The position numbers and the translations under genes were made by a program. Positions 1,967-63,438 of a stretch of DNA of 64,000 nt are shown in pieces (positions within the stretch are counted from its first letter, which is position 1; each line of letters starts with the position of its first letter). The notes under the pieces are model-generated. The model saw only the letters and a program-made list of their open reading frames with translations, did not search any database and was not told the DNA's origin. Origin of the DNA: Lentisphaerota bacterium (GTDB taxonomy: Bacteria; Verrucomicrobiota; Kiritimatiellia; JAAZAB01); assembly GCA_016188985.1 (NCBI GenBank), contig JACPGM010000053.1:4290-68289 (forward strand). Direction: 5' to 3'.

Positions 1967-2017
1967 CTCTCCGATAGCTGAATAGTTACGAGCAATTATT
2001 ATTTGTGTTGAGCCAGG

Positions 2018-2659
2018 ATGAACACTATTCGCGCAGTTTTATTTGATTTTGACGGCACGCTGACCTTGCCGGGCAGCATTGATTTCATGGGCATCAAGCG
2101 CTCCATCCGCTGCCCGCGCGACGTGACGATCCTGGAGTTCATTGGGCGCTTGCAACCCGCCTCGGCCCGGCGCCGGGCTTGGGCCATCCTCCACCGGTTT
2201 GAAGATGAGGCCGCCCGGCGCAGTCGGCCGAACGAAGGCGCCGAGGACTTGGTCCGCTGCCTGAAACGGCGGCGCATTCGTCGCGGCATTCTCACGCGCA
2301 ACCGGCGCGTTTCGGTCGCTACAGCGCTTAAAAACTTTGCCCAGGTGCGCCTGGCTGATTTTACCGTGATTATTACCCGCGACCATGTTGAGCGGCCTAA
2401 ACCCGATCCCGAAGGAGTATTGCTGGCGGCGCGCCGCCTGAAAGTCAAGCCCAGTGAGTTGCTGGTCGTGGGGGACTACATCTATGACATCGAAGCGGGC
2501 AAAAGCGCCGGCGCGCGCACGGTTTTCCTGGAGAGCGAGTTCACTACCCGGCGGCCCGCTCCGCCCGCCGATTTTTCGATCCGGTCACTGAACGAAGTCG
2601 CCGGCCTTATTGACCGATTGAACCGTAGCCGCGGAAAGGCCCATAATGCTTCCGGATAG
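2018..2659 (+). CDS. HAD-family hydrolase
   Basis: N-terminal DxDGTL motif (VLFDFDGTLT), internal …ITRDHVERPKPDPEG… and …LVVGDYIYDIEAGKSAG… (HAD motifs II-IV). Confidence 0.7.
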   Translation: MNTIRAVLFDFDGTLTLPGSIDFMGIKRSIRCPRDVTILEFIGRLQPASARRRAWAILHRFEDEAARRSRPNEGAEDLVRCLKRRRIRRGILTRNRRVSVATALKNFAQVRLADFTVIITRDHVERPKPDPEGVLLAARRLKVKPSELLVVGDYIYDIEAGKSAGARTVFLESEFTTRRPAPPADFSIRSLNEVAGLIDRLNRSRGKAHNASG

Positions 2660-2698
2660 AAGTTGTGTTTTTTGTGCTTCTTTGTGGCAAGATTTTTT

Positions 2699-3664
2699 AT
2701 GAATACTTCTGAAGTCCTTCTGGCCGTGGATAACTTAAGCGTCTTTTTCCGGACGCGGTCTGAGCCGATTCGGGCAGTGAATGGCGCATCGTTCAACATT
2801 GCATCGGGCGAGACCGTTGCGCTGGTCGGCGAGAGCGGCTGCGGCAAGAGCGTGACTGCCCTGGCGCTGACGCGCCTGGTGGCCGAGCCCGGCTACGTGG
2901 CCGGCGGCCGGATCCGGTTTGGCGGGCGCGACGTGCTGGCCATGGAACAGCGGCAGTTGCGCGATCTGCGCGGCGCGGAAATCGCTTATATCTTCCAGGA
3001 ACCGGCCGCCGCGCTTAATCCCGTATTCCGGGTTGGCTGGCAGATAGCGGAGTCTTTGCGTCTCCATCGCCGCGACATTGCGGTTCGCCAGGAAGTAATC
3101 CATCTGCTGAACCGGGTGGGCTTGAGCGATCCCGAGCATCGGCGCCGGGCCTATCCCCACGAGCTTAGTGGCGGCATGCAACAGCGCGTAATGATTGCCA
3201 TGGCCCTGGCTTGCCGGCCGCGCCTGCTGGTGGCCGATGAGCCTACTACCGCCCTGGATGTCACCATCCAGGCGCAAATTCTCGATCTGCTGACGCGCCT
3301 GCAGGGCGAACTGGGCATGGCGATCTTGCTGATTACCCACAATCTGGCGCTGGTGGCCGGCATTGCCCGGCGGGTCAACGTCATGTATGCCGGCCGGGTC
3401 GTGGAGTGGGGCTTGGCCGAAGACATTCTGCTGCAGCCGGCGCATCCTTATACCCGCGGACTTATGGCCGCCGTGCCGCGCTTAAGCGGGGGGACAACCC
3501 GCATGGCCGGAATTCCGGGCGCCGTGCCCAACCCCGCCCGGCTACCTTCGGGATGTCCCTTCCATCCGCGTTGCCCGAAAGCCCAGGCCCGTTGCTCCGT
3601 TGAAGATCCGTGTGATGAAAACATAACCGCGGAACATGGTGTCCGATGCCACTTCTGGAAATAG
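2699..3664 (+). CDS. oligopeptide/dipeptide ABC transporter ATP-binding protein (OppD/DppD-like)
   Basis: Walker A GESGCGKS, signature LSGGMQQR, Walker [14 protein letters not shown]-terminal Opp-type extension with CPFHPRCP motif. Start chosen at ATG 2699 (MNTSEVLL…) rather than the ORF-track upstream extension. Confidence 0.85.
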
Positions 3665-4632
3665 CCGATTTACAGGTCTCCTTCAAATCAGGCCGCCGCC
3701 AGGAAGTGCGCGCGGTTGACGGTGTCTCGCTGGCGGTGGCCTCGGGCGAAAGCGTCGGCCTGGTGGGCGAGAGCGGCTGCGGCAAGAGCACGCTGGGCAA
3801 CACCATCTTGCGCCTGGTGCCGGCCTGCTCCGGCCAAATCCGGTTCGAAAACCAGGATGTCCTGGCGCTTGGCTGCGGCGATCTGTTCCGCTACCGCCGC
3901 CGCGCCCAGATGATTTTTCAAGACCCCTACGGCTCGCTCAACCCGCGCCTGACAATCGGCGCAGCAATTGAAGAATGCCTGGCGGTGCACCGGCTGGGCA
4001 ACCGGCTGGAACGCCGCGAGCGGGTGCGCCACCTGCTGGAGACCGTTGGACTCGAATCGGATTACGCCGCGCGATATCCCCACGAGTTCAGTGGCGGGCA
4101 ACGCCAGCGCGTGGGCATTGCCCGGGCCCTGGCGCTTGATCCAGTCTTCATCGTAGCCGATGAGCCGGTCTCGGCGCTGGATGTTTCGGTGCAAGCGCAA
4201 ATCCTGAACTTGCTTAAAGATCTCCAGCTCTCGCGCAACCTGGCCTATCTCTTCATTGCTCATGACCTTTCCGTGGTGCGCTATATGTGCAGCCGGGTGC
4301 TGGTCATGTATTTCGGCCGGATCGTCGAGGCGGCGGATGCCGCCGAGCTTTTTGCGCATCCGGCGCATCCTTATACCCGGACGCTGCTGGCCGCCGTGCC
4401 GGATATTGAGAGAGGATTGCGCGCCGCGCGCGCGCGCTCAGCGGTCGCGCAAGGCGAAGTACCCAGCGTCAGCACTGCGGTAGAAGGTTGTTCCTTCCAT
4501 CCCCGTTGCCCCTATGCCGAGGAGATCTGCCGAGAGCAGACGCCGAAAGACCACGAGGTCAGCCCGGGCCATACCAGCCGTTGCCATTTCGCCGGGACAA
4601 TAAGATTGCATCGGGGCATGATATCTCAGTAA
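3646..4632 (+). CDS. oligopeptide/dipeptide ABC transporter ATP-binding protein (OppF/DppF-like)
   Basis: Walker [10 protein letters not shown], signature FSGGQRQR, Walker B FIVADEPVSALD, C-terminal CSFHPRCPYAEEIC motif. Overlaps the upstream ATPase gene by ~19 nt (operon). Confidence 0.85.
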   Translation: MPLLEIADLQVSFKSGRRQEVRAVDGVSLAVASGESVGLVGESGCGKSTLGNTILRLVPACSGQIRFENQDVLALGCGDLFRYRRRAQMIFQDPYGSLNPRLTIGAAIEECLAVHRLGNRLERRERVRHLLETVGLESDYAARYPHEFSGGQRQRVGIARALALDPVFIVADEPVSALDVSVQAQILNLLKDLQLSRNLAYLFIAHDLSVVRYMCSRVLVMYFGRIVEAADAAELFAHPAHPYTRTLLAAVPDIERGLRAARARSAVAQGEVPSVSTAVEGCSFHPRCPYAEEICREQTPKDHEVSPGHTSRCHFAGTIRLHRGMISQ

Positions 4633-9232: not shown

Positions 9233-9350
9233 TAACTACGAAATGCGCAAAATACGCGAAACTTTCAATATAATTTCATTTACCATTTTCGCGCCTTTTC
9301 CGCCTGAGGCGGATCTGCCTTAGGCATGACGCGTTTTTCGTAGTTTCATT
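9233..9350. mobile_element. MITE-like repeat family A, copy 2
   Basis: aactacgaaatgcgcaaaatacgcgaaa … ccgcctgaggcggatctgccttaggc … gcgtttttcgtagtttc. Same TIRs and palindromic core as the copies at 1849 and 53540. Confidence 0.6.
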
Positions 9351-11920: not shown

Positions 11921-12068
11921 AATTGGCCTGATAGTTAGCTCTGCTCCTTAGCCGGAGAGAATGGACGCTACTATAATTAAAGCGGCGGCGAAACGCATTA
12001 ATAAAATGACAGGGCAGGAATGATCTGGTAAGAAGAGCGATAGTAACTGCTCAGACATCTAAGCAAAA

Positions 12069-12215
12069 CCGGCGGGACAAGGCTGTCCCGCCCTACCAAT
12101 GGGAAGATGTCCCGCCATAGGCGGGTCTGCCTATGGAATGAAAATCTGGCTTGCCGTCGTCCGGCAACAGCCGGACTATGGCTGAGCACGGTAGGGCCGC
12201 ACAGCCTGTGCGGCC
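12069..12215. repeat. REP-like palindromic repeat family C (gtagggc + hairpin units), copy 1
   Basis: ggcgggacaaggctgtcccgccctacc … gtcccgccataggcgggtctgcctatgg … ggtagggccgcacagcctgtgcggcc. An inverted copy lies at ~38131-38247. Confidence 0.6.
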
Positions 12216-12260
12216 GTTGGGACAGTTGAACGAGTAATAAATGTCTCGGTGAGGTAGAGC

Positions 12261-13486: not shown

Positions 13487-14551
13487 ATGACATCGAAAGA
13501 GCGTGTCCGCATAACGCTCGCGCGCAACGCCGCCGACCGGGTTCCGGTGAATTACGAGGCAAACCCGGGCATTGATCGGCGTCTTAAAGAGCATTTCGGG
13601 CTGACCGCCGACGATGACGAGGGATTGCGTCGAGCGCTTGGCGTGGATTTCCGCAGTGTCGAGGCTGTGTACCGGGGACCAAGGCTGCACCAGGACATTC
13701 CCGAACGGGGCATCAAGGTGGACAATATGGGTATTCACTGCCGCTGGATCGAGCACGAGAGCGGCGGATACTGGGACTACTGCGATTTTCCGCTGAAGGA
13801 TGCCGACGAAGAGACCGTTGCCAACTGGAGCATGCCCGATGCGGATCAATATGACTTTTCGGAAGTTCGCCGCCACTGTCAACATTACCGCGAGTATGCG
13901 GTCAGCCTGCTGTGCTATGGGGATTTGATCAATGGCAACGGCATGCTGCGCGGCATGGAGCAGACCCTGATAGATCTAATTACCGATAACCCGGCCGGGC
14001 TGCTGCTGGCCGACCGCCGCTTCGGTTTCCAGATGGAAATCGCGCGGCGGACGCTCGAAGCCGCCCGGGGAGGCATTGATATTCTATGGCTCGGAGAGGA
14101 CCTGGGCTTACAGGATCGCCCCATGATTTCCATGGACATCTTCAAGAAACATGTTCGCCCGCGCTATCAGAAGCTGGTTGATCTCGGGAAAGCTTTCGGC
14201 GCTCGGGTCATGATCCACACCTGCGGCTCTTCAAGTTGGGCATACGAGGACTTTATTGAAATGGGTATTGACGCCGTGGACACTCTCCAACCGGAAGCCA
14301 AAGACATGGCGCCGGCCTACCTGAAAAACACTTTCGGCGGTCGGCTTGCCTTTCACGGGTGCATCAGCACGGCCGGAGCGGTTGCGTTCGGCACGCCCCA
14401 GGACGTGGCGGCGTATTGCCGGCAAACACTGGCGATCATGATGCCCGGGGGTGGCTATTGCTTCGCGCCGACCCACGCTTTGCAGGACAATTCGCCCACC
14501 GAGAACGTCGTGGTAATGTACGAGACCGCGCGGAAGCATGGAATCTATTAA
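13487..14551 (+). CDS. uroporphyrinogen decarboxylase (URO-D) family protein (MtaA/CmuA-like), paralog 1
   Basis: 354 aa; URO-D/methyltransferase-like TIM-barrel pattern (…LWLGEDLGLQDRPMIS…FKKHVRPRYQKL…IHTCGS…). 8-nt gap to the DUF1015 gene. Confidence 0.65.
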   Translation: MTSKERVRITLARNAADRVPVNYEANPGIDRRLKEHFGLTADDDEGLRRALGVDFRSVEAVYRGPRLHQDIPERGIKVDNMGIHCRWIEHESGGYWDYCDFPLKDADEETVANWSMPDADQYDFSEVRRHCQHYREYAVSLLCYGDLINGNGMLRGMEQTLIDLITDNPAGLLLADRRFGFQMEIARRTLEAARGGIDILWLGEDLGLQDRPMISMDIFKKHVRPRYQKLVDLGKAFGARVMIHTCGSSSWAYEDFIEMGIDAVDTLQPEAKDMAPAYLKNTFGGRLAFHGCISTAGAVAFGTPQDVAAYCRQTLAIMMPGGGYCFAPTHALQDNSPTENVVVMYETARKHGIY

Positions 14552-14790
14552 GGCGGGCTTGTGCCCGCAACCCAAGTTGTTAATGCTTCCTTCCAATTGT
14601 GCGGTGAATTTGGTTCGAAAAAGGCGGCGGCGATCTTAGGCCGCCTGCAGGTTTTCCGCGCTTGCGCATACAAGAGTATAGCGCTGCGCGCGGCGCACCC
14701 GCATTCGGCCCGAGCTGGCCTTGCTTTTTCGAATCCGCCTTCGGCGGAAACCAAATTCACCCCACGACTGCATCCGCCCGGCAAGCCGGG
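14552..14790 (+). repeat. ~240-bp repeat family F, copy 1 (begins with gcgggcttgtgcccgc hairpin directly after stop codon)
   Basis: gcgggcttgtgcccgcaacccaag…gcggcggcgatcttaggccgcctgcaggttttccgcgc…gaaaccaaattc. Reverse-complement copy at ~26880-27140. Confidence 0.55.
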
Positions 14791-14868
14791 GGCTTGCCTG
14801 GCGGAAATAAAACTAGTTTTCGGCTAAAACATACACCAAAAACGTGTATCTTTACGGGAAAGCGTCTA

Positions 14869-14897
14869 AATAAATTTTTCGCCGGGCGAAAAATTTA
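14869..14897. terminator. rho-independent terminator candidate (A-tract / hairpin / T-tract, bidirectional)
   Basis: aaatttttcgccgggcgaaaaattt: perfect 8-bp stem with 3-nt loop flanked by A and T runs, in the intergenic region between the two URO-D genes. Confidence 0.4.
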
Positions 14898-15077
14898 TGA
14901 TGCGCCTGCGGCGCACAGATGACTTTATGTTTTGGAATATTCTGCTATGTAGCTGCGCCCATGAGGGCGTGGATTTACCTGGCAGCCACGGCGTCACCGC
15001 CGCGGCTTGTTGTTAATTTTTCCGTAAGCCGCTAACCCGCGAAGGAAACCCAGGCTGGGCAACGTTAAGACTAAAAA

Positions 15078-16136
15078 ATGAACTCAAGAGAACGAATGCT
15101 GGCCGCGATCAACCGGCAACCGCTCGATCGCATTCCCACGGATATATGGGCAACCGCGGAGGTCTGGGCCAAACTGCGTAATTACTTCGGTGAGAAGACC
15201 GACATAACGACAGAACTCCACATTGACGGGTTTGCCGCGGTCGGACCGGAATACGTTGGCCCGGCGCTGCCGCCGGTGTTCAAGGATGAGTCGGTAGATT
15301 TCTGGGGCATCCGCAGAAAGCGCGTGCCCCACGAAGGCGGCGCCTATGATGAGCAATTCTTCTATCCACTGGCCAACGCGCAGACCATTGACGATCTGAA
15401 CGATTACGCCTGGCCGAGCACGGAATGGTTTGACTATTCGCTCATGCGGGCCAAAGCCGAGGAAGCTGGAAGAACCAGGGCCGTGCAGTGCGGCTATATG
15501 GCCCCATTCTATTTTCATAACCAGTTGCGAGGCTTAGAGCAATCGCTGGTTGATCCCCTGGTCAAGCCAGAATTTACGCATTTTCTTATCGGGCGGATTG
15601 CGGACTTCTTTTTTAAACATCATCGGCGGATGTTCGAGGCCTGCCAGGGGTTCATTGATGTGGCGCAAGTGACTGACGACCTCGGCAGCCAAACGGGTCC
15701 CCTTATCAGCCTGGACTTGTACCGGGAATTCTATGCCCCTCACCACAAACGCTTTATTGATCTGTGCTACGAGTTCGGGATCAAGGTCTTCCATCATGAT
15801 GATGGCAGTTGCCGCGCGTTCCTGCCTAAGTTGGTCGAGATGGGGATCAATATCCTCAATCCCGTTCAGTGGACTTGTCCGGGAATGGACATGGCCGAAC
15901 TGAAAGCGGAGTTCGGGAAGCGGATCTGCTTCCACGGCGCTGTGGAGAACCAGCGCATACTGCCTTTTGGAACTCCCGCAGAAGTTCGCGCCGAAGTGCG
16001 CCACTGCATTGATGCGCTGGCCAGCGATGGCACGGGATACATCCTGGCCCCCTGCCACAACCTGCAGGTCAACACGCCGGTCGCTAACATCATCGCCATG
16101 TACGACGAAGCCTGGCAGTACGGGAAAATGTCCTGA
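15078..16136 (+). CDS. uroporphyrinogen decarboxylase (URO-D) family protein, paralog 2
   Basis: 352 aa; same family signature as the 13487..14551 gene (…ISLDLYREFYAPHHKRFIDL…FHHDDGSC…). Homologous N-terminal MNSRERMLAAINRQPLDRIP vs MTSKERVRITLARNAADRVP. Confidence 0.65.
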   Translation: MNSRERMLAAINRQPLDRIPTDIWATAEVWAKLRNYFGEKTDITTELHIDGFAAVGPEYVGPALPPVFKDESVDFWGIRRKRVPHEGGAYDEQFFYPLANAQTIDDLNDYAWPSTEWFDYSLMRAKAEEAGRTRAVQCGYMAPFYFHNQLRGLEQSLVDPLVKPEFTHFLIGRIADFFFKHHRRMFEACQGFIDVAQVTDDLGSQTGPLISLDLYREFYAPHHKRFIDLCYEFGIKVFHHDDGSCRAFLPKLVEMGINILNPVQWTCPGMDMAELKAEFGKRICFHGAVENQRILPFGTPAEVRAEVRHCIDALASDGTGYILAPCHNLQVNTPVANIIAMYDEAWQYGKMS

Positions 16137-19973: not shown

Positions 19974-21110
19974 ATGAAAACCGGGGAATCAGGCGTTGTA
20001 TTGGAGGCCGTCGTCATTTTTGGCGGTTTGGCCTGTATTCTGGCCGCCGGCATCTACGTGGCCGGCAGTTCCACCGTGGTCAGCTCGGCCCGGACCATCC
20101 GATTTGAAAAAGCTTTTCTGATTGCCGAAGCTGGCGCTGAACGGGCCAAGGCCGATCTGAGCACTAACGCTGATAATATCAACACTATCTTAACCGGCGC
20201 CGATGGCCTTACCAACACGTCCGACGACGGCATTTTAAGTTTTGGCGCCGCAGTGCCCTTTGGCGGCGGAGCCTTTTCCACACGGGTCTGGGACAACAAC
20301 GACAGCGATCCCAGCCTGTTCGTGGATACGGATTGGACGGTTATTATTCGCTCCACCGGTGCCTGTGAAAACGTTCAGCGGGTTTTGGAACTGGCCGTCA
20401 CGGTGTCTAACCCCCCAGCGCCGCCGGCCGATAGTGACGGGGCTTTGGCTATTTATGGGAGTAATACTACCGTGGATGTCGGCGGGAATTCGTCCATTAA
20501 TGGCAATGATTGGGGTGTGCCGGATGATTTTGATTGCACGGGGGCTGCCTGTGACGGCACGCTGACGACCAATCCGGCCGGGCCGGGCGTGTTTTCATCC
20601 ACCAACACCACGCCGACCATCGGCGGCTCGGCCGTCGTGGTGGGTGATCCGCCCGTAACCAATAATGCGACGGGCGACTATGATGCGCAGTATTGGCAAG
20701 CCCAGGTTGACTACTGGACGCCCTTGGCCTCCCTTTCAATCAGCGGCAGCGTTCCCAATGATGCTTACCTCGGGACGCGCGATAACCCGCAAGTTACGCT
20801 GGCTACAGGCGATGTCAATATTGATGGTAATGTGTCCGGGGCTGGTGTTCTTATTGTCCAGCCCGGCGTTGATATCACCATTGCCGGCACGTTTCATTAC
20901 GAAGGGCTGGTGATTCTCCTGGGCAATGTAACTTGCACGGCCCTGGGCACGGCCGACATATTTGGCGCCGTGACCGTCGTGGGTGGAGACAACAGTGTTT
21001 CTCTGAATGGGTTTCCGTCAATCAAATATAGCACCGAGGCGCTGGCCAATCTGGTTAACCTGCCCTTACCCGGCCCGCTCGCGGTGCAATACTGGCGCGA
21101 AATCAAATAA
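19974..21110 (+). CDS. PilX-N-terminal-domain-like pilus-associated protein, tandem paralog 1
   Basis: N-terminal hydrophobic segment (VVLEAVVIFGGLACILAAGIYVAGSS) resembling the PilX_N domain. Paralog of 21450..22595, with long identical blocks (STNADNINTILTGADGLTNT, FHYEGLVILLG, …QYWREIK end). RBS ggtgaag upstream. Confidence 0.5.
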   Translation: MKTGESGVVLEAVVIFGGLACILAAGIYVAGSSTVVSSARTIRFEKAFLIAEAGAERAKADLSTNADNINTILTGADGLTNTSDDGILSFGAAVPFGGGAFSTRVWDNNDSDPSLFVDTDWTVIIRSTGACENVQRVLELAVTVSNPPAPPADSDGALAIYGSNTTVDVGGNSSINGNDWGVPDDFDCTGAACDGTLTTNPAGPGVFSSTNTTPTIGGSAVVVGDPPVTNNATGDYDAQYWQAQVDYWTPLASLSISGSVPNDAYLGTRDNPQVTLATGDVNIDGNVSGAGVLIVQPGVDITIAGTFHYEGLVILLGNVTCTALGTADIFGAVTVVGGDNSVSLNGFPSIKYSTEALANLVNLPLPGPLAVQYWREIK

Positions 21111-21449: not shown

Positions 21450-22595
21450 ATGGGCCTCATGAAAACCGAGCAATCCGGCTTTGCTTTAGTGATTGTCGTT
21501 ATCCAGGCCAGCCTGGCTTCAATCATGGCCGCCGGCCTGTACATGGCCAGCGGTTCTACGGTTGCCCGCGCCAACCGGACGCTTCATTTTGAAAAATCAT
21601 TTCTAATTGCCGAAGCGGGCGCTGAACGGGCCAAGGCCGTCCTGTCCACTAATGCTGATAATATCAACACTATCTTAACCGGCGCCGATGGCCTTACCAA
21701 CACCTGCGACGATGGCATTTTGAGTTTCGGCAACTCGGTGTCCTTTGCTGGCGGAGACTTTTCCGTGCTGGTCTCCGACAACGCTGACAGTAATCCCAGC
21801 CTATTCGTAGATACGGATAATACGGTCATTATCCGCACTACCGGCACCTATGAAAATGCCCGGCATGTGCTGGAATTGTCGGTCACGGTTACCAACCCGT
21901 CCGCCCCGCCGGCCGATACCGATGGCGCTCTGGCTATTTATGGAAGCAATGCTACGGTGAATGTTGGCGGCAGTGCGTCCATTGATGGCCGAGACTGGGC
22001 GGTCCCCGCTGATTTTGACTGCACGGGGGCCGGCTGCGACGGCGCGTTGACGACCAATGCGGCCGGGCCGGGCGTGTTTTCAGCTACCAACACGACAACC
22101 ATTAACGGCTCGAACAACATTGTGGGCAATCCGCCCGTGACCAATAATGCCGTCGGAGAGTATGACGAGCAATATTGGCAGGACCAGGTTGACTACTGGA
22201 CGCCCCTGGCTTCCCTTTCGATCAGCGGGAATGTGGCCAATGGCTCTTCCTTCGGGACGCGGACCAGTCCCCAGATTACCATTGTTACGGCCGACGCCAG
22301 TATTGCTGGCAATGTGGCTGGCGCTGGCGTGCTCATTGTCATGCCCGACGTTGATATCAGCATTTCGGGCACGTTCCATTATGAAGGGCTGGTGATTCTC
22401 CTGGGCGACGTGGTGTGTACGGCCCTCGGCACGGCCGACATATTTGGCGCTTTGGTGGCGCTTGGTGGGGAAAATAGTGTCACGCTGAATGGGCATCCGA
22501 ACGTCAAATACAGCACCCAGGCTCTGGCCAACCTGGCCAACATGGACGATTTACCTCCTCCGCTCTCGGTTCAATACTGGCGAGAAATTAAATAA
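21450..22595 (+). CDS. PilX-N-terminal-domain-like pilus-associated protein, tandem paralog 2
   Basis: 381 aa; N-terminus QSGFALVIVVIQASLASIMAAGLYMASGS. Extensive identity with the 19974..21110 gene. Confidence 0.5.
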   Translation: MGLMKTEQSGFALVIVVIQASLASIMAAGLYMASGSTVARANRTLHFEKSFLIAEAGAERAKAVLSTNADNINTILTGADGLTNTCDDGILSFGNSVSFAGGDFSVLVSDNADSNPSLFVDTDNTVIIRTTGTYENARHVLELSVTVTNPSAPPADTDGALAIYGSNATVNVGGSASIDGRDWAVPADFDCTGAGCDGALTTNAAGPGVFSATNTTTINGSNNIVGNPPVTNNAVGEYDEQYWQDQVDYWTPLASLSISGNVANGSSFGTRTSPQITIVTADASIAGNVAGAGVLIVMPDVDISISGTFHYEGLVILLGDVVCTALGTADIFGALVALGGENSVTLNGHPNVKYSTQALANLANMDDLPPPLSVQYWREIK

Positions 22596-22640: not shown

Positions 22641-22735
22641 GTCATTCCGGGCTTTCCGCCTTGGGCGGATCCGCCTGTGGAGGAGACCCGGAATCCAGTT
22701 TTCCTGGTCTGGATTCCCGCCTGCGCGGGAATGAC
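22641..22735. mobile_element. MITE-like repeat family B (TIR gtcattccc…gggaatgac) enclosing a ggcggatccgcc palindrome
   Basis: gtcattccgggctttccgccttgggcggatccgcctgtgg…ggattcccgcctgcgcgggaatgac. Related copies at 53166-53230, 55858-55989 and partial at 63290-63345. Confidence 0.5.
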
Positions 22736-26779: not shown

Positions 26780-26783
26780 GAAA

Positions 26784-26818
26784 TGCAGAATGCAGAATGC
26801 AGAATGCAGAATGCAGAA
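26784..26818. repeat. heptanucleotide tandem repeat (aatgcag)x5
   Basis: gaaatgcagaatgcagaatgcagaatgcagaatgcagaaac immediately after the ilvD stop. A related motif (caatgcagaatgaagaatgcagaaaca) follows comF at ~47783-47810. Confidence 0.7.
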
Positions 26819-26879
26819 ACATCGAATATCGAATGACGGAGTAAGAACAAAGAAGAACCAGGAACCGTTGTGTGCCGCG

Positions 26880-27140
26880 GTAGCAGTTTATCCGCCGTAG
26901 CTTCTTAGCGAAGGCGGATGGCCACTGTGGCTCGAATTCGGTTTCCCGCGCGAGCGGGATTCGGGAAAGCAAGGCAAGCTTGGGATGAATGCCGGTGCGC
27001 CGCGTGAAGTCATAGGACTTCTGTCCATGCGAGCGCGGAAAAACCGGCAGGCGGCCCAAGATCGCCGCCGCATTTCCCGAACCGAATTCGAGACGCATTG
27101 ACCCAGAACAGGCAGTCTTGGGTTGCGGGCACAGCCCGCA
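26880..27140 (-). repeat. ~250-bp repeat family F, copy 2 (inverted relative to copy 1)
   Basis: Reverse complement begins gcgggctgtgcccgcaacccaag… and shares blocks (gcggcggcgatcttgggccgcctgc, ggaaaccgaattc) with 14552-14790. Lies immediately 3' of the minus-strand gene 27145..27543. Confidence 0.55.
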
Positions 27141-27144
27141 TTGG

Positions 27145-27543
27145 TCACTGGAAATGCGTTAGGATGTACTGGATTGCCGCCGGCAGAGAGGGCAGGATCT
27201 TGGTGCAGTAGCGCACCATCCAGGGACTGCTGTCCTTGAAGCTGAACGGTGAAAAGGCCACCACGAATTTGCCCAGGTCATGCGCGGCGTAAAACACTTC
27301 CATGGCCGTGCCGATGGAGGGTTTGTTGTAATTGACCAGCAGCACCTCCGCGTTGCGAATGTCAGACAAGTCAAATTCCACGATTTCGTTGGCGCTATCC
27401 ACCTCGCGGTCCTTGAAGTTCCGGCGCATGGGATCCAGAATGATGAAGGCGCCGCCGAGTTCCTGGTTGGCCGTCTTGCGCCAGTCGTGGGCCGCGCCGC
27501 CGGCTTCGTCCATGATCGGACCACAGAGGTAAATGGTTTTCAC
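27145..27543 (-). CDS. nucleoside 2-deoxyribosyltransferase-like protein
   Basis: 132 aa, MKTIYLCGPI… N-terminus and overall pattern of the Ndt/YtoQ-like flavodoxin-fold family. Confidence 0.45.
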   Translation of the reverse strand: MKTIYLCGPIMDEAGGAAHDWRKTANQELGGAFIILDPMRRNFKDREVDSANEIVEFDLSDIRNAEVLLVNYNKPSIGTAMEVFYAAHDLGKFVVAFSPFSFKDSSPWMVRYCTKILPSLPAAIQYILTHFQ

Positions 27544-31008: not shown

Positions 31009-32304
31009 GTGAAAGAATGTGAAACCATAGAATTCAAGAAGAGTCTGTCAGAACTCAAGGAGGGCTTGGTCTCCATTGTGGCCATCCTGAACAAGCATGG
31101 CTCCGGTGAACTGTGGTTTGGCGTCCGCAACGACGGTGTCAGCGTTGGCCTGGATGCCACAACAAAGACCCTTCGTGATGTTTCGCAAGCGATTAGTGCG
31201 CACATTGAACCGAGGATTTTCCCGCACGTCACACTGGAATCCTGCGCCAGGGAGCTGGAGAATCTTATCCTTTCCAGGAATAGCGAGCGACTTCGCTGGG
31301 ACAACAAAGTGTGTGCTGTTTCTATCGGTGACCTGGATAAAGCCGGAATCAGGCGGTTTATCGCGCGTGCCGGACTCGTATGGGATACCCCGACAAATGC
31401 GCTGGAGAAACTCGGACTTCTTCATGCCGGAAAGCTGGTGAATGCGGCCCCGCTGTTCTTTGCGCGAAAGGCTCCGCTGCAACTGCGTTGCGCCGTTTTT
31501 CTGACGACCGAGAGTTCAACAATTATTGACCGGCATGATTTTGACGGCAACATCCTCGAACTGATAGAAGAGGCTCAACGCTACATTCTCAAAAACATCC
31601 ATATCGGCATGCGTGTCAAGGGGCTTTACCGCGAAGACGTGCCGGAAATCTCGGTTGATGCCCTGCGTGAGGCCATTATCAACGCCTTCTGCCATCGTGA
31701 TTACCGCGATCCGGATTATGTGCACGTTGCGATTTTCAAAGACCGCGTCGAAATCCGAAATCCTGGCAGGTTGTTCGGATCACTGACCTTGGACGATTTG
31801 CGCAAAGGATATGTGTCGCAACGGCGCAATCCATTGATCGCCGATCTGTTCCGCCGCATCGAGATGGTGGAAGCCTGGGGTCGCGGCATGCCGTTGATCA
31901 TCAAGAATGCTCCCGACGTCGTGTTTCGCGAAATCGGCAATCTTTTCATCGTTTCCTTCAACCGGCCATCTTATGCGGATGAATCTGGCAGGGGTGATGC
32001 GTCAAGTTCGGGAAAGGAAGTTCCGGTAAGAGGGTTCCTGAAAGAAAGTTCCGGCAAGAAGGTATCTGAAGAAGGTTCGGGAAAGAAGGTTCGGGAAAGA
32101 AGGTTCGGGAAAGATTCTGGAAAAACCGGACATCAAATACTCGATTTCCTTTCACAGCAACCCGAGATGACGGTTCCTGAACTTGCCGGGCGGCTGGGAC
32201 TAACGACTCGCGCGATTGAGAAGCAAATCGCCAAATTGCGGGATGCGAAATTACTGCTTCGCACAGGCGGACGTAAAATAGGGCGTTGGGAGGTGCAGAA
32301 ATGA
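31009..32304 (+). CDS. AlbA_2 (Schlafen-core-like) + HATPase_c_4 + C-terminal winged-HTH protein
   Basis: N-terminus ECETIEFKKSLSELKEGLVSIVAILNKHGSGELWFGVRNDGVSVGL is the AlbA_2 signature. Central …DYVHVAIFKDRVEIRNPGRL… is HATPase_c_4. C-terminus …LDFLSQQPEMTVPELAGRLGLTTRAIEKQIAKLRDAKLL… is HTH. Low-complexity linker encoded by a 14-nt tandem repeat. Confidence 0.7.
   Translation: MKECETIEFKKSLSELKEGLVSIVAILNKHGSGELWFGVRNDGVSVGLDATTKTLRDVSQAISAHIEPRIFPHVTLESCARELENLILSRNSERLRWDNKVCAVSIGDLDKAGIRRFIARAGLVWDTPTNALEKLGLLHAGKLVNAAPLFFARKAPLQLRCAVFLTTESSTIIDRHDFDGNILELIEEAQRYILKNIHIGMRVKGLYREDVPEISVDALREAIINAFCHRDYRDPDYVHVAIFKDRVEIRNPGRLFGSLTLDDLRKGYVSQRRNPLIADLFRRIEMVEAWGRGMPLIIKNAPDVVFREIGNLFIVSFNRPSYADESGRGDASSSGKEVPVRGFLKESSGKKVSEEGSGKKVRERRFGKDSGKTGHQILDFLSQQPEMTVPELAGRLGLTTRAIEKQIAKLRDAKLLLRTGGRKIGRWEVQK
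32020..32115 (+). repeat. 14-nt tandem repeat (ggttcgggaaagaa x3 plus degenerate units) inside the AlbA_2 gene linker
   Basis: gaaggttcgggaaagaaggttcgggaaagaaggttcgggaaagat. Unit length is not a multiple of 3, so successive units are read in different frames (GSGKK / VRERR / FGKDS). Confidence 0.7.
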
Positions 32305-38066: not shown

Positions 38067-38130
38067 GGGGAATTTTCGATTTATGATTGGTGATTTTTGG
38101 TGACTACTCAGGTCATTCAACTGTTCCAGC

Positions 38131-38247
38131 GGCCGCACAGGCTGTGCGGCCCTACCATATTTTCATGCCATAGGCAGACCCGCCTATGGCGGGACATCTT
38201 CCCATTGGTAGGGCGGGACAGTCTTGTCCCGCCGGCTTTGCGATAGA
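38131..38247. repeat. REP-like repeat family C, inverted copy of 12069-12215
   Basis: ggccgcacaggctgtgcggccctacc…ccataggcagacccgcctatggcgggac…ggtagggcgggacagtcttgtcccgcc is the reverse complement of the 12-kb copy. Confidence 0.6.
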
Positions 38248-45269: not shown

Positions 45270-45421
45270 GTTACCCAACCCGCTGGGGCGCAACCTCTTT
45301 GGTCGTTGCGCGGCGTTCCACGCGAAGGACAATACCTTCCAGGTATTCCACCTTCGCGTGCGCCTTGCGCAATCGGCAATATAGGTTGCGACATTGTCAT
45401 AATATTTACGAAACAGAGCAC
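45270..45421. mobile_element. MITE family E, truncated copy (right TIR present)
   Basis: cccaacccgctggggcgcaacctctttggtcgttgcgcg…tccaccttcgcgtgcgccttgcgcaatcggcaatataggttgcgacattgtcataatatttacgaaacagagcac. Homologous to the 3' ~150 bp of the full copy at 58663-58939. Confidence 0.55.
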
Positions 45422-47772: not shown

Positions 47773-47921
47773 TTGGAAGACAATGCAGAATGAAGAATGC
47801 AGAAACAGGCCGACGGACGCCAGAGGCCAGGCGCCAGATGTCGGAACTGATGTCGGAAATCAGCAATCCGTAATCCAAAATCCAAAATTAGAATAATCCG
47901 CAATCCGAAATCGAAACAATT

Positions 47922-53390: not shown

Positions 53391-53460
53391 GTGGTGGCAA
53401 CACCATGAGGGTTCCCCGCCGGAGGCTGGTCCGCCTAAGGCGGAAAGTCCCTCCTCCGGC
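53391..53460 (+). repeat. partial duplicate of tRNA-Leu 3' half interrupted by a ggcgga…ccgcc-type repeat
   Basis: ggtggcaacaccatgagggtt[ccccgccggaggctggtccgcctaaggcggaa]agtccctcctccggcact, i.e. the variable arm + T-arm + acceptor 3' strand of the upstream tRNA with a ~30-bp insert replacing the T-loop. Confidence 0.6.
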
Positions 53461-53539
53461 ACTCAGTCTCTGATGGGTTCTTGCTCTTACGGTAAGTCCG
53501 ATCTAAGGCGGGCTAAAGCCCTCAACCCAATTCATTGAC

Positions 53540-53650
53540 AACTACGAAATGCGCGAATGGACGCGAAACAATTTTTAATGGGCTTATTTCGTGTTTTTAG
53601 CGTGTTTCGTAGTTTCCGCCTGTGCGGATCCGCCGGGGCGGAAATTTTCT
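53540..53650. mobile_element. MITE-like repeat family A, copy 3
   Basis: aactacgaaatgcgcgaatggacgcgaaa…gcgtgtttcgtagtttccgcctgtgcggatccgccggggcggaaa. Confidence 0.6.
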
Positions 53651-53680
53651 TGTTTTTTGTGACGGTTTTGCGTGTATCAG

Positions 53681-56600: not shown

Positions 56601-56924
56601 GAATCATCGAACAAAGCGGCGGAAGCTATCGCCCCGCAAGGCGGGGCTCAGCCTCAACGCTGACGTCGGTTAACGATGTGCTGATGAAAAAGTTAAGGCA
56701 GTTGTAAAATTCAGGCATGGTTCAAAACCCCGTGGTTTCAGGTTCCGCCGGAGGCGGATCTGCCTCAGGCATGAAACAATTCTCGCATGGAGATGGAGGG
56801 CGGACCTCCGTGTCCGCCGCGGCGATGACGGAGCATCGCCCTCCATGACGCATGCAGTCCGATACCTTGAATTGAACCAAGCTAAAATTCATAACGGAAC
56901 AACCGATAGGCAAGGAGGTGTGAT

Positions 56925-57815: not shown

Positions 57816-58662
57816 TCCCTACCAGCAATTTGTGGCCGGCTATGCGCGCTTGGTGAGCGAACAGTACCCGATGGGTAAAGCCGGTCCCGGCCGGCGCGTG
57901 ATCATTGCGCGCGATGCTCCGCAAGTCCTGCTGTTTTCGCCGCATCCGGATGATGAATGCATTACCGGGGCCTTGCCCCTGCGGCTTGAGCGCGAACGCA
58001 AGATGAATGTGATTAATGTGGTCGTGACCCAGGGTAGCCGCCACGACCGGCAGGCCGAACGCCTGGCGGAATTGCGCCAGGCCTGTGATTACCTGGGCTT
58101 TGGCGTGCTGCCGACGGCCAAACATGGCCTGGAAAAAATCAACCCGGCCAACCGGGAGCAGAACCCCGCCGCCTGGGCCGAGGCCGTGGCCGTAATCGCC
58201 GGGATTTTACGGCAGAGGCAGCCGCGCCTGATTTTTGTGCCCCATGAAAAGGATTGGAACACCACGCACATCGGCACGCATTACCTGGTCAACGACGCGC
58301 TCAAAATCATGCCGATCAGTTTCTGTTGCGGCGTGGTCGAAACCGAATTCTGGGCGCCCATGCTCAATCCCAACCTCATGATCGAATCCAGCGTGGCCGA
58401 TGTGACCGACCTGGTCACGGCCCTCTCGTTCCATGTGGGCGAAGTCAGCCGTAACCCGTATCATTTGCGCCTGCCGGCCTGGCTGCAGGATAATGTCCGC
58501 CGGGGCGGCGAGCTGGTTGGCGGGCAGGGGACCGTGGCGCCAACCTTTGTCTTTGCCACGCTCTACCGCTTCCGAGTCTGGGCCCGCGGCAAATACAAGA
58601 AGGCGGCCGCACCGGGCAAATTCATTTCATGCAACGATAGGCTGGGGGATATCTTCGGCTAA
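57808..58662 (+). CDS. PIG-L/LmbE-family deacetylase
   Basis: …LLFSPHPDDECITGA… zinc-binding PIG-L signature. 8-nt overlap with the SPFH gene. Confidence 0.8.
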   Translation: MNNPYQQFVAGYARLVSEQYPMGKAGPGRRVIIARDAPQVLLFSPHPDDECITGALPLRLERERKMNVINVVVTQGSRHDRQAERLAELRQACDYLGFGVLPTAKHGLEKINPANREQNPAAWAEAVAVIAGILRQRQPRLIFVPHEKDWNTTHIGTHYLVNDALKIMPISFCCGVVETEFWAPMLNPNLMIESSVADVTDLVTALSFHVGEVSRNPYHLRLPAWLQDNVRRGGELVGGQGTVAPTFVFATLYRFRVWARGKYKKAAAPGKFISCNDRLGDIFG

Positions 58663-58939
58663 GTGCTCAGATTCGTAAATATTATGACGAATGATTGTGT
58701 CCATTTTTGCGCAGGGCCAGGCGGCGAAAGCGGAGGCGTACCTGAAAGGTCCGTGCGGCTTTCGCCAACGCCGCCCGGCCCAAAAATGGGCCCAACCCGC
58801 TTGGGCGCAACCTCTTTTGCCGTTGCGCCGTGTTCCACGCGAAGGGAAAATACCTTCCAGGTATTCCACCTTCGCGTGCGCCTTGCGCAATCGGCAAAAT
58901 AGGTTGCGTCATTGTCATAATATTTATGAAACTGAGCAC
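58663..58939. mobile_element. MITE family E, full copy (277 bp, ~28-bp terminal inverted repeats)
   Basis: Left end gtgctcagattcgtaaatattatgacgaatg…; right end …cattgtcataatatttatgaaactgagcac (reverse complement of left end). Internal hairpins; begins directly after the PIG-L stop codon. ORF-track ORFs inside are rejected. Confidence 0.65.
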
Positions 58940-62966: not shown

Positions 62967-63082
62967 AGCGGGTTTTTATCCAACGTGGGCTCCGCCCGCA
63001 ACCCAAATAAAACAATAAAACAAACCTTACCACGGAGACACGGAGAGAAAAATTCTCCTCCCAGGTTCTCTTCCAACCAATC

Positions 63083-63133: not shown

Positions 63134-63438
63134 TCCTGTGGGGAGCCGGAAGAGATTAAGAAGACGGAGTCATTCTCCGTCCCTCCGTGCCTCCGTGGTG
63201 AATCCTCTCTTGCTTTACATCTTCTTGTTTTTTACCGCGGTTCCTGATGTATCAGGCTCTAAAGTAGTGCGATGTCCGCAACCGAAAAATTTTCGCCATG
63301 CGCGGATCCGCACAGGCGGACCCCCGCGCAGCGCGGGATGACAGGGATGACCTGGGATACGAATGGTCAAGGCATTGACAATTGTCCGGCGACCGTCAAC
63401 AATCAGTGCTATCAGTGCCATCCGTGGCAGGTAATTAC

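Follow-up and report, generated by a model that had tools for sequence, protein, structure and literature searches.

A hairpin-led intergenic unit behind two genes of a Kiritimatiellota contig, probably copies of a dispersed, non-autonomous palindromic repeat family

In this work we ask what the element is that begins within a nucleotide of the stop codon of two functionally unrelated genes in the window (the whole 64,000-nucleotide stretch of DNA analysed here), and whether it belongs to those genes or to a wider family. The initial annotation had described two related copies, and their comparison bears this out: copy 1 (14548-14773, plus strand) and copy 2 (26918-27144, minus strand) represent one shared non-coding unit, with a mean column identity of 77% and single-base indels in a pairwise alignment (69% identity over the unit from terminal hairpin to rod in an alignment of 35 sequences), a shared 25-nt core, GCGGCGGCGATCTTRGGCCGCCTGC, that occurs exactly twice in the window against zero expected (100 shuffles), and predicted folding well beyond that of shuffled sequence (z = -5.5 and -6.5, respectively). 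Both copies had been placed correctly, with the extent of the conserved unit now corrected to 14548-14773 and 27144-26918; accessory 3' modules carry copy 1 to approximately 14871 and copy 2 to approximately 26863. In copy 1, GGCGGGCTTGTGCCCGC runs from 14552, directly 3' of the TAA closing a URO-D-family ORF (13487-14551), and that TAA falls within the conserved 5' motif of the family, YTAAG. In copy 2, read on the minus strand, CCAAT-GCGGGCTGTGCCCGC occupies 27144-27125, 3' of the TGA of an ORF (27543-27145) encoding a nucleoside 2-deoxyribosyltransferase-like protein (Ndt-like; PF05014); the gap between stop codon and unit is 0-1 nt for both. We conclude that both probably belong to a dispersed family of non-autonomous, palindromic repeats found between genes in Kiritimatiellota, of the MITE/REPIN/ERIC-like kind, the hairpin of which is probably under selection. 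The parts of the two copies are as follows.

Copy 1:
14548-14575, plus strand: 5' end, ATTAAG (URO-D TAA at 14549-14551), hairpin H, then AACCCAA
14553-14568, plus strand: hairpin H, GCGGGC-TTGT-GCCCGC, REP-like, its stem covarying across copies
14576-14593, plus strand: spacer, variable, missing from some members of the family alignment (e.g. L003, L028)
14594-14773, plus strand: rod, a branched imperfect hairpin with closing stems P1 and P2
14626-14645, plus strand: GC hairpin of the rod
14664-14684, plus strand: apical hairpin of the rod, variant GCGCATAC/GTATAGCGC
14709-14724, plus strand: conserved stretch of the rod 3' arm
14734-14748, plus strand: side hairpin of the rod
14774-14804, plus strand: accessory 3' GC hairpin of T1 type after ...GCAT, varying between copies
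14829-14871, plus strand: accessory 3' module of 43 nt, ACATACACCAAAAACGTGTATCTTTACGGGAAAGCGTCTAAAT, also 3' of the copies in L017, L005, L030 and L011

Copy 2:
27118-27144, minus strand: 5' end, CCAAT, hairpin H (27139-27125) and AACCCAA, 1 nt past the Ndt-like TGA (27145-27147)
26918-27100, minus strand: rod
27069-27050, minus strand: GC hairpin of the rod
27030-27011, minus strand: apical hairpin of the rod, variant GCATGGAC/GTCCTATG
26984-26969, minus strand: conserved stretch of the rod
26959-26944, minus strand: side hairpin of the rod
26863-26917, minus strand: accessory 3' modules
26917-26892, minus strand: T1 mini-hairpin CCGCCTTCGCTAAGAAGCTACGGCGG, missing from the orthologous copy L013
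26883-26863, minus strand: T2 motif CTACCGCGGCACACAACGGTT

Forty distinct copies were gathered from Kiritimatiellota MAGs and metagenomes, with three more added later, and the orientation of copy 1 is termed forward throughout. An exact-pattern scan of GTDB representative genomes returned 13 real copies, 12 of them in MAGs that bear the labels Kiritimatiellae/Kiritimatiellota or the older Verrucomicrobia, and one on a short contig binned as Hydrogenedentes (a match in Streptomyces was rejected as chance); exact matches per MAG include five in STD1_155 and three in a Lac Pavin MAG. A two-block pattern identified 25 loci in metagenomes, and an nhmmer profile identified 44 strong copies (the window and 39 loci, four of which hold second copies) that score 90-227 bits on one strand and 15-43 bits on the other, so that the element has a defined orientation. 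The window DNA is not itself among the 39 loci; L013, from a Lac Pavin MAG, is orthologous to the copy 2 locus (82-86% identity at the DNA level). We estimate a density of roughly one copy per 30-60 kb. Since most copies were retrieved by patterns derived from the core, part of its apparent invariance is built in, and the pattern-independent copies L044, L001b and L018b vary there. No match to the element was found among PLSDB plasmids by distant blastn or among viral sequences in a pattern scan of IMG/VR.

The family unit is about 222 nt long, or about 300 nt with accessory modules (220-300 bp overall), and consists of H, a spacer and a branched rod. H comprises a 5' YYAAN, a 6-bp GC hairpin (GCGGGC-nnn-GCCCGC) and AACCCAA; the spacer spans 0-45 nt, about 25 nt as a rule; and the rod, of about 180 nt, has ends that form inverted repeats (CAGTGTGGCGAATT.../...AATTCGCCACACGG) and pair as a stem of about 25 bp, with H and the spacer of the shared unit lying outside the left one. 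Closing stems P1 (GTGTGGCGAATTCGGT / ACCGAATTCGCCACAC) and P2 (CGnAAAAG / CTTTTnCG) lead into a 5' arm with the GC hairpin GGCGGC-GATCTTGG-GCCGCC, a further stem (TGCGGG / CCCGCA), an apical hairpin found in two versions that co-vary fully (GCGCATAC..GTATAGCGC and GCATGGAC..GTCCTATGC), and a 3' arm with the conserved stretch CCCAAGCTTGCCTTG and the side hairpin. Optional modules begin after ...CACGGTTGCAT, namely several types of T1 GC hairpin, T2 (CGCTAACGCGGAAATCAACGGTTT) or the 43-nt module shared by copy 1 and four other loci, and these attachments combine as a mosaic. Within the rod, mini-hairpin insertions of 19-46 nt were found in L033b, L032, L019, L010 and L043, and L001b and L044 carry another core between identical ends. 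For a possible, purely rod-like pairing of the core across the arms (TTGGGCC with GGCCCAA), 3'-arm variation is uncompensated in the pattern-selected copies, but the pattern-independent L044 has a different pair that is again complementary; a local GC hairpin is the alternative to this pairing.

The fold is strongly supported by covariation. Of 51 pairs predicted by RNAalifold, 26 show compensatory changes, and once the H stem is added to give 57 pairs, 95.3% of alignment cells hold standard pairs, as compared with 85.1% on shuffling and 34-50% with slid partners. Double changes occur in 29 of the 57 pairs and several pairs show three pair types. Compensated cells number 212 against 73.6 expected, a value reached by none of 500 shuffles, with the qualification that independent events are fewer than compensated cells because a few two-state modules swap between copies. 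Differing versions of the apical and side hairpins are found between the orthologous L015 and L034, and at a locus that precedes a 521-aa gene. Comparison of copy 2 with its ortholog L013 reveals a single compensatory change, G-C to A-T, that arose in place within H, and pairing stays at 95% while rods diverge by approximately 21% in sequence.

These substitutions also agree with the earlier judgement that the element is non-coding, as do rod lengths of 166, 167, 168, 169, 170, 171, 172 nt and so on, which are not multiples of three, and a search of 5.8 billion proteins with the translated ORF across copy 1, which met only seven unrelated singleton 'hypothetical proteins' of 54-135 aa. Although 31 of 35 rods keep one frame open, a coding reading was rejected on the 1-2 nt shifts in length and on the fact that these seven singleton ORFs are all that it yields.

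The family is a structured, non-coding, multi-copy repeat with discrete ends, recent duplicates, recombination and decay remnants. In an all-against-all comparison of copies with 500-nt flanks, non-orthologous alignments open within 0-4 nt of the YYAAN-H motif and run to the end of the rod, or 28-57 nt beyond it where T1/T2 are common to both. L021 and L025 are 98.6% identical with differing flanks, L009 and L021 96.7%, and L005 and L009, from two different MAGs, 93.7%. Because non-orthologous similarity of up to 98.6% has exact unit limits, the element is discrete and has been recently duplicated, and because that similarity starts at the 5' motif of H, H is a part of the repeat rather than a pre-existing host terminator. 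A MITE with a preference for terminator hairpins had been among the candidates first put forward; it names the right kind of element, but the preference does not hold, as H belongs to the repeat and is followed by AACCCAA without a U tract. H was rejected as an intrinsic terminator since its stem-loop is not directly trailed by a U tract, and a scan of both window copies for intrinsic terminators found none that is canonical and no terminator-like site at H; the only terminator-like site is a weak one on the reverse strand, at the GC hairpin followed by CCTTTTTCG.

Copies recombine with each other by module swapping, and partial forms exist. Solo H modules number 8-9 in 327 kb, several joined to another repeat, L014 retains H and the first 13 nt of the rod, and L045 is a truncated copy. 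Two solo modules lie in the window, the first of them joined to a different repeat (..ACCACGGAGACACGGAG..):

62980-63006, plus strand: solo H without rod, CCAAC-GTGGGC-TCC-GCCCGC-AACCCAA, in reverse 13 nt upstream of a minus-strand start at approximately 62967
53508-53530, plus strand: second solo H-like module, GCGGGCTAAAGCCCTC-AACCCAA, downstream of tRNA-Leu

Inverted pairs lie tail to tail 685 nt apart in L018, 209 nt in L024, about 300 nt in L044 and 12 kb in the window, where the pair is not recent because its inner synteny is common to L013. The pair in L018 is instructive in relation to L023, which has the orthologous gene pair (a 602-aa and a 558/605-aa gene): a 108-nt spacer in L023 (2286-2395) corresponds to 1,115 nt in L018 (2279-3370), where a GNAT acetyltransferase gene sits between a forward copy and an inverted copy of the element. 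From its arrangement, the GNAT gene bracketed by inverted copies could possibly constitute a composite mobile unit, and the entire spacer has been exchanged there, not cleanly interrupted. No target-site duplication was found in this comparison or in the aligned junctions; nor did the approximately 45 loci (about 330 kb of sequence) contain a transposase, a recurrent partner gene, an autonomous version or further rod termini that might flank one.

Several orthologous loci keep a copy across species (one upstream of the 521-aa gene, others at glgA and Ndt), a pattern equally compatible with retention by the host and with an old mobile element. A search among close homologs for an empty URO-D site yielded none: the contig of L040, whose URO-D protein is 92% identical, stops inside the gene, and L041 and L042, with URO-D homologs in other contexts, are not syntenic and have no element downstream. 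The L040 contig (GCA_016182435.1, contig JACPGN010000306.1) ends just before the position of the repeat in the window, perhaps an assembly break at the repeat family. As a separate observation, copy 1 is flanked by two URO-D-family paralogs (13487-14551 and 15096-16136, both PF01208), and since close homologs sit in many gene contexts, the window 'URO-D' is probably a member of a multi-paralog family and not the haem-pathway enzyme.

The placement of copies relative to genes was examined with a codon-usage gene caller trained on the loci, for the 40 distinct copies, 33 of which could be scored on the H side. Copies occupy short gaps between genes, and their REP-like hairpin end is flush with ORF boundaries in either orientation: it lies 0-45 nt from coding sequence in 27 of these 33 copies, at a median of 13 nt from the adjoining ORF whether stop or start. 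On the other side, the median distance from rod end to neighbour is 155 nt, which includes 35-100 nt of accessory modules, and the asymmetry between a flush 5' and a looser 3' side is not significant if about 100 nt of 3' modules count as element. The H-side neighbour is the end of a same-strand gene within 45 nt in 10 copies, and in 17 it is the start of an opposite-strand gene, with H 4-45 nt upstream. These start codons appear genuine from the translated N-termini, among them VATKRDYYEVL.. (L032), which we take to be DnaJ, MPSLVIIGAQWGDEGKGK.. (L022), presumably PurA, MDTLTIGQRTF.SRL..GTGKF (L001), which we read as ThiG, and MEVIIQPN.. (L010), which we assume to be NagB. Where both neighbours were scored, 14 copies are reverse between co-directional genes, five forward between co-directional genes, five between convergent genes and two between divergent genes; three further copies, which came to light as spurious ORF calls and thus without use of the DNA pattern, are reverse between co-directional genes without exception, one of them in an ATP synthase operon beside an inserted 671-aa gene, giving 17 reverse against 5 forward (binomial p = 0.017). 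Contexts include operon-like ones, between grpE- and dnaJ-like genes (L032) and from atpG to the next gene (L043). L043 is also of note in that its ATP synthase operon holds, between atpG and atpD (1983-4460), a 671-aa gene with Antibiotic_NAT / ceramidase-like Pfam matches together with an element copy.

The constant orientation relative to the upstream gene asserted by the initial annotation is true of the two window copies only; the rule describes a minority case, because reverse dominates by 17 to 5 between co-directional genes. That account had named random placement of further copies combined with lack of structure as the outcome that would speak against it; orientation does vary, and a conserved secondary structure is common to the copies. 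A 3'-UTR-embedded sRNA, also among its candidates, does not fit variable orientation. We consider it very improbable that the element is such an sRNA or a regulatory cassette specific to the URO-D and Ndt genes: both window copies are indeed in sense and 0-1 nt past a stop codon, as this would predict, but that arrangement is confined to the 10 copies at same-strand gene ends, 17 others face a start codon in reverse, the neighbouring genes are functionally unrelated, and the URO-D homologs of L041 and L042 do without it.

It is likewise improbable, though less so, that the copies are multicopy genes for a stand-alone structured ncRNA, each with its own promoter. Strong covariation, conserved loop sequences, a strand well defined by sequence and conservation across species would all be expected of such genes, which could also take any orientation to their neighbours, but the 27 of 33 5' ends that abut coding sequence leave no space for a conserved promoter. 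A scan of both window copies found no convincing sigma-70-like promoter, in addition to the missing canonical terminator, and with Rfam 15 the whole window gave only tRNA-Leu at the gathering threshold; at E<=10, the interval 14400-15000 gave nothing over H, spacer or rod and four weak matches, all 3' of the rod, at 12.6-17.2 bits as compared with gathering scores of 37-100. Copies moreover tolerate hairpin insertions of 19-46 nt, core replacement (L001b, L044) and truncation, and a density of about one per 30-60 kb is unusually high for an RNA gene. With no room for a private promoter, the repeat copies would instead be transcribed as part of neighbouring mRNAs, mostly in reverse. As to strand, G.U against A.C mismatches (9:5 in forward contexts, 13:17 in reverse) are not significant. 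The predicted RNA is more stable on the reverse strand in 26 of 35 copies, by a mean difference of -4.2 kcal/mol (Wilcoxon p = 0.001, with copies that are not independent of one another), so that modelled fold stability offers a hint in agreement with the orientation bias.

An alternative that places selection on the host is a 'cistron boundary cassette', retained for a benefit at the RNA level with mobility being ancestral or secondary. The rod would be cut by an RNase III-like activity or would block exonucleases, H would protect the upstream mRNA as a 3' stem-loop in forward copies and, in reverse copies, form a 5' stem-loop on the downstream one, and the stability of neighbouring cistrons would thereby be uncoupled. 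The short distance of H from stops and starts alike, the operon-like contexts at dnaJ and atpG, orthologous retention in several species with a compensatory change in place, 95% pairing despite approximately 21% rod divergence, and the 17:5 orientation bias with better reverse-strand folding are all in keeping with this scenario, which we nevertheless consider unlikely: near-identical copies at unrelated loci with sharp limits require a copying mechanism in any case, the flushness asymmetry is lost when the accessory modules are counted, and the remnants and truncated copies resemble decay.

The preferred reading, a dispersed non-autonomous palindromic repeat, can be examined against known systems, and proteobacterial ERIC, REPIN/BIME and Correia elements may be its functional counterparts. 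ERIC sequences, or IRUs, are imperfect palindromes of about 127 bp in transcribed intergenic regions, in either orientation, conserved across species and kept at orthologous loci, with indel size variants and no known transposase. Our element is likened to them by features and not by sequence, being palindromic, intergenic, in either orientation, retained at orthologous loci and variable through internal indels; it differs in its greater length, with a rod of about 180 nt and a separate REP-like hairpin, in its asymmetry (H at the 5' end, a side hairpin on the 3' arm), in its mosaic 3' modules and in its phylum. REPINs are extragenic hairpin repeats whose ends are highly conserved and whose interior varies, with compensatory changes being frequent, and copying by an enzyme acting on a folded single strand has been proposed for them (Bertels & Rainey 2011, PMC3116915). 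The element shares with REPINs and REP-BIME sequences a long hairpin, conserved ends around a variable interior, compensatory changes, singlet remnants, clusters and long vertical persistence, and H resembles a REP in that a short conserved motif precedes a GC stem-loop. The rod arms, however, are not mirror-image REPs, the GC hairpin being confined to the 5' arm and the side hairpin to the 3' arm, and the element is about twice the size of a REPIN; its asymmetric arms keep us from calling it a REPIN. A REPIN is also paired with a single-copy RAYT (a Y1 transposase) that the repeats flank; no candidate protein recurs beside copies of the element.

Correia (NEMIS) elements of Neisseria, like other bacterial MITEs, are small, ORF-less and present in many copies, with inverted termini that give a long stem in mRNA; they often abut gene starts or ends, and can be co-transcribed and processed by RNase III. 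The element is similarly small, ORF-less and multicopy, abuts gene starts or ends and, in inverted pairs, can bracket genes, but has neither a TA nor any other target-site duplication, and shared sequence passes the inverted termini, with H on one side only and termini that covary instead of being constant. In size (about 222 nt, or about 300 nt with modules, where <600 bp is expected), lack of coding capacity and copy number (two in the 64-kb window, five exact matches in one MAG) it agrees with a classical MITE, but it falls short of a strict definition for want of a target-site duplication; the rod ends are inverted repeats, with the shared unit extending beyond them. PATEs of the IS200/IS605 type have subterminal hairpins at both ends and a conserved flanking tetranucleotide, lack TIRs and target-site duplications, and are mobilized by a Y1 transposase. 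Taken as a whole, our unit likewise has no TIR or target-site duplication, its 5' subterminal hairpin follows a conserved tetranucleotide (YYAA), and hairpin integrity is probably selected, as expected under single-strand transposition; unlike PATEs, it has no consistent H-like 3' subterminal hairpin (T1 being optional and heterogeneous) and no TnpA/TnpB nearby. An intrinsic terminator, an Rfam RNA and a gene-specific 3'-UTR element were rejected in turn, on the missing U tract, the lack of a match and the orientation of copies, respectively.

Under the reading as a repeat family, the copies would have spread through a trans-acting enzyme acting on a folded single strand, in the manner of REPINs or IS200. 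Within an mRNA, a reverse copy would place the rod first and H after it, shortly before the start codon that follows; at divergent pairs, the 5' UTR of the H-side gene would include H, or its promoter would lie within or beyond the element. In such transcripts the double-stranded rod may be a site of processing or a barrier to decay, and H a protective stem-loop that ends the adjacent cistron. The long stem may accordingly be kept through the need of the copying enzyme for a folded strand, through utility of the RNA to the host, or possibly through both.

To our knowledge this repeat family is previously undescribed and represents the first palindromic intergenic repeat for Kiritimatiellota; we know of no other structured intergenic repeat in the group, and a literature search on Kiritimatiellota repeats returned nothing relevant. 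REP/BIME, ERIC, Correia and REPIN repeats have been well studied in proteobacteria, and the present family, which belongs to Kiritimatiellota, is of interest for its abundance, its conservation across species and environments and its unusually well supported fold. It probably shapes operon transcripts of the host organisms, may explain contig breaks in MAGs, yields spurious ORF calls and could serve as a lineage marker. Should a copying enzyme or a role in RNA processing be found, persistent vertically inherited repeats would extend to a new phylum. A bolder proposal, which we hold doubtful, is that the element is a host-selected, genome-wide RNA 'punctuation' cassette for Kiritimatiellota operons, its H flush with ORFs, copied by an enzyme that acts on the folded single strand; the rod would then be a processing or barrier site, with H capping either the preceding cistron at its 3' end or the following one at its 5' end. 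If true, the PVC superphylum would harbour a new mutualistic system of repeat and enzyme that differs from REPIN-RAYT.

The window is unusually rich in other intergenic repeats. An unrelated second family occurs at 12063-12233 (plus strand) and 38113-38241 (minus strand) as a string of GC hairpins (GGCGGGACAAGGCTGTCCCGCC, GTCCCGCCATAGGCGGGTC, GGGCCGCACAGCCTGTGCGGCC); its copies are 93-95% identical and both intergenic, one of which carries a hairpin of 43 nt inserted at 12146-12188. Another dispersed family is represented by a direct repeat, about 150 nt long and 91-95% identical (45274-45421 and 58791-58939, with an inverted 31-nt partner nearby at 58658-58688). Further pairs of 40-114 nt and 83-95% identity lie at 24983-25096/60947-61060, 21200-21301/24481-24582 and 18565-18604/24443-24482, and those that could be placed sit in intergenic gaps by called genes. 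A small REP-like family of double hairpins, TTTCCGCC-nnGG-GCGGATCCGCC-nnGG-GCGGAAA, occurs in both orientations at the following sites:

1918-1971: small REP-like family site
9287-9340: small REP-like family site
22643-22689: small REP-like family site
53403-53450: small REP-like family site
53615-53655: small REP-like family site
56743-56785: small REP-like family site
63280-63320: small REP-like family site

Tandem repeats of the heptamer (ATTCTGC)n are found at 47782-47807 and at 26782-26821, the latter between the 3' modules of copy 2 and the stop of a convergent IlvD/Edd gene and shorter in L013. Tandem paralogs of 378 and 381 aa (19974-21110 and 21450-22595) share approximately 77% DNA identity, including their 3' flanks. 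Lastly, a repeat with a 14-nt period (GTTCGGGAAAGAAG-like) occupies 32006-32128 within the ORF 31009-32304, an odd period for coding sequence since 14 is not a multiple of three.
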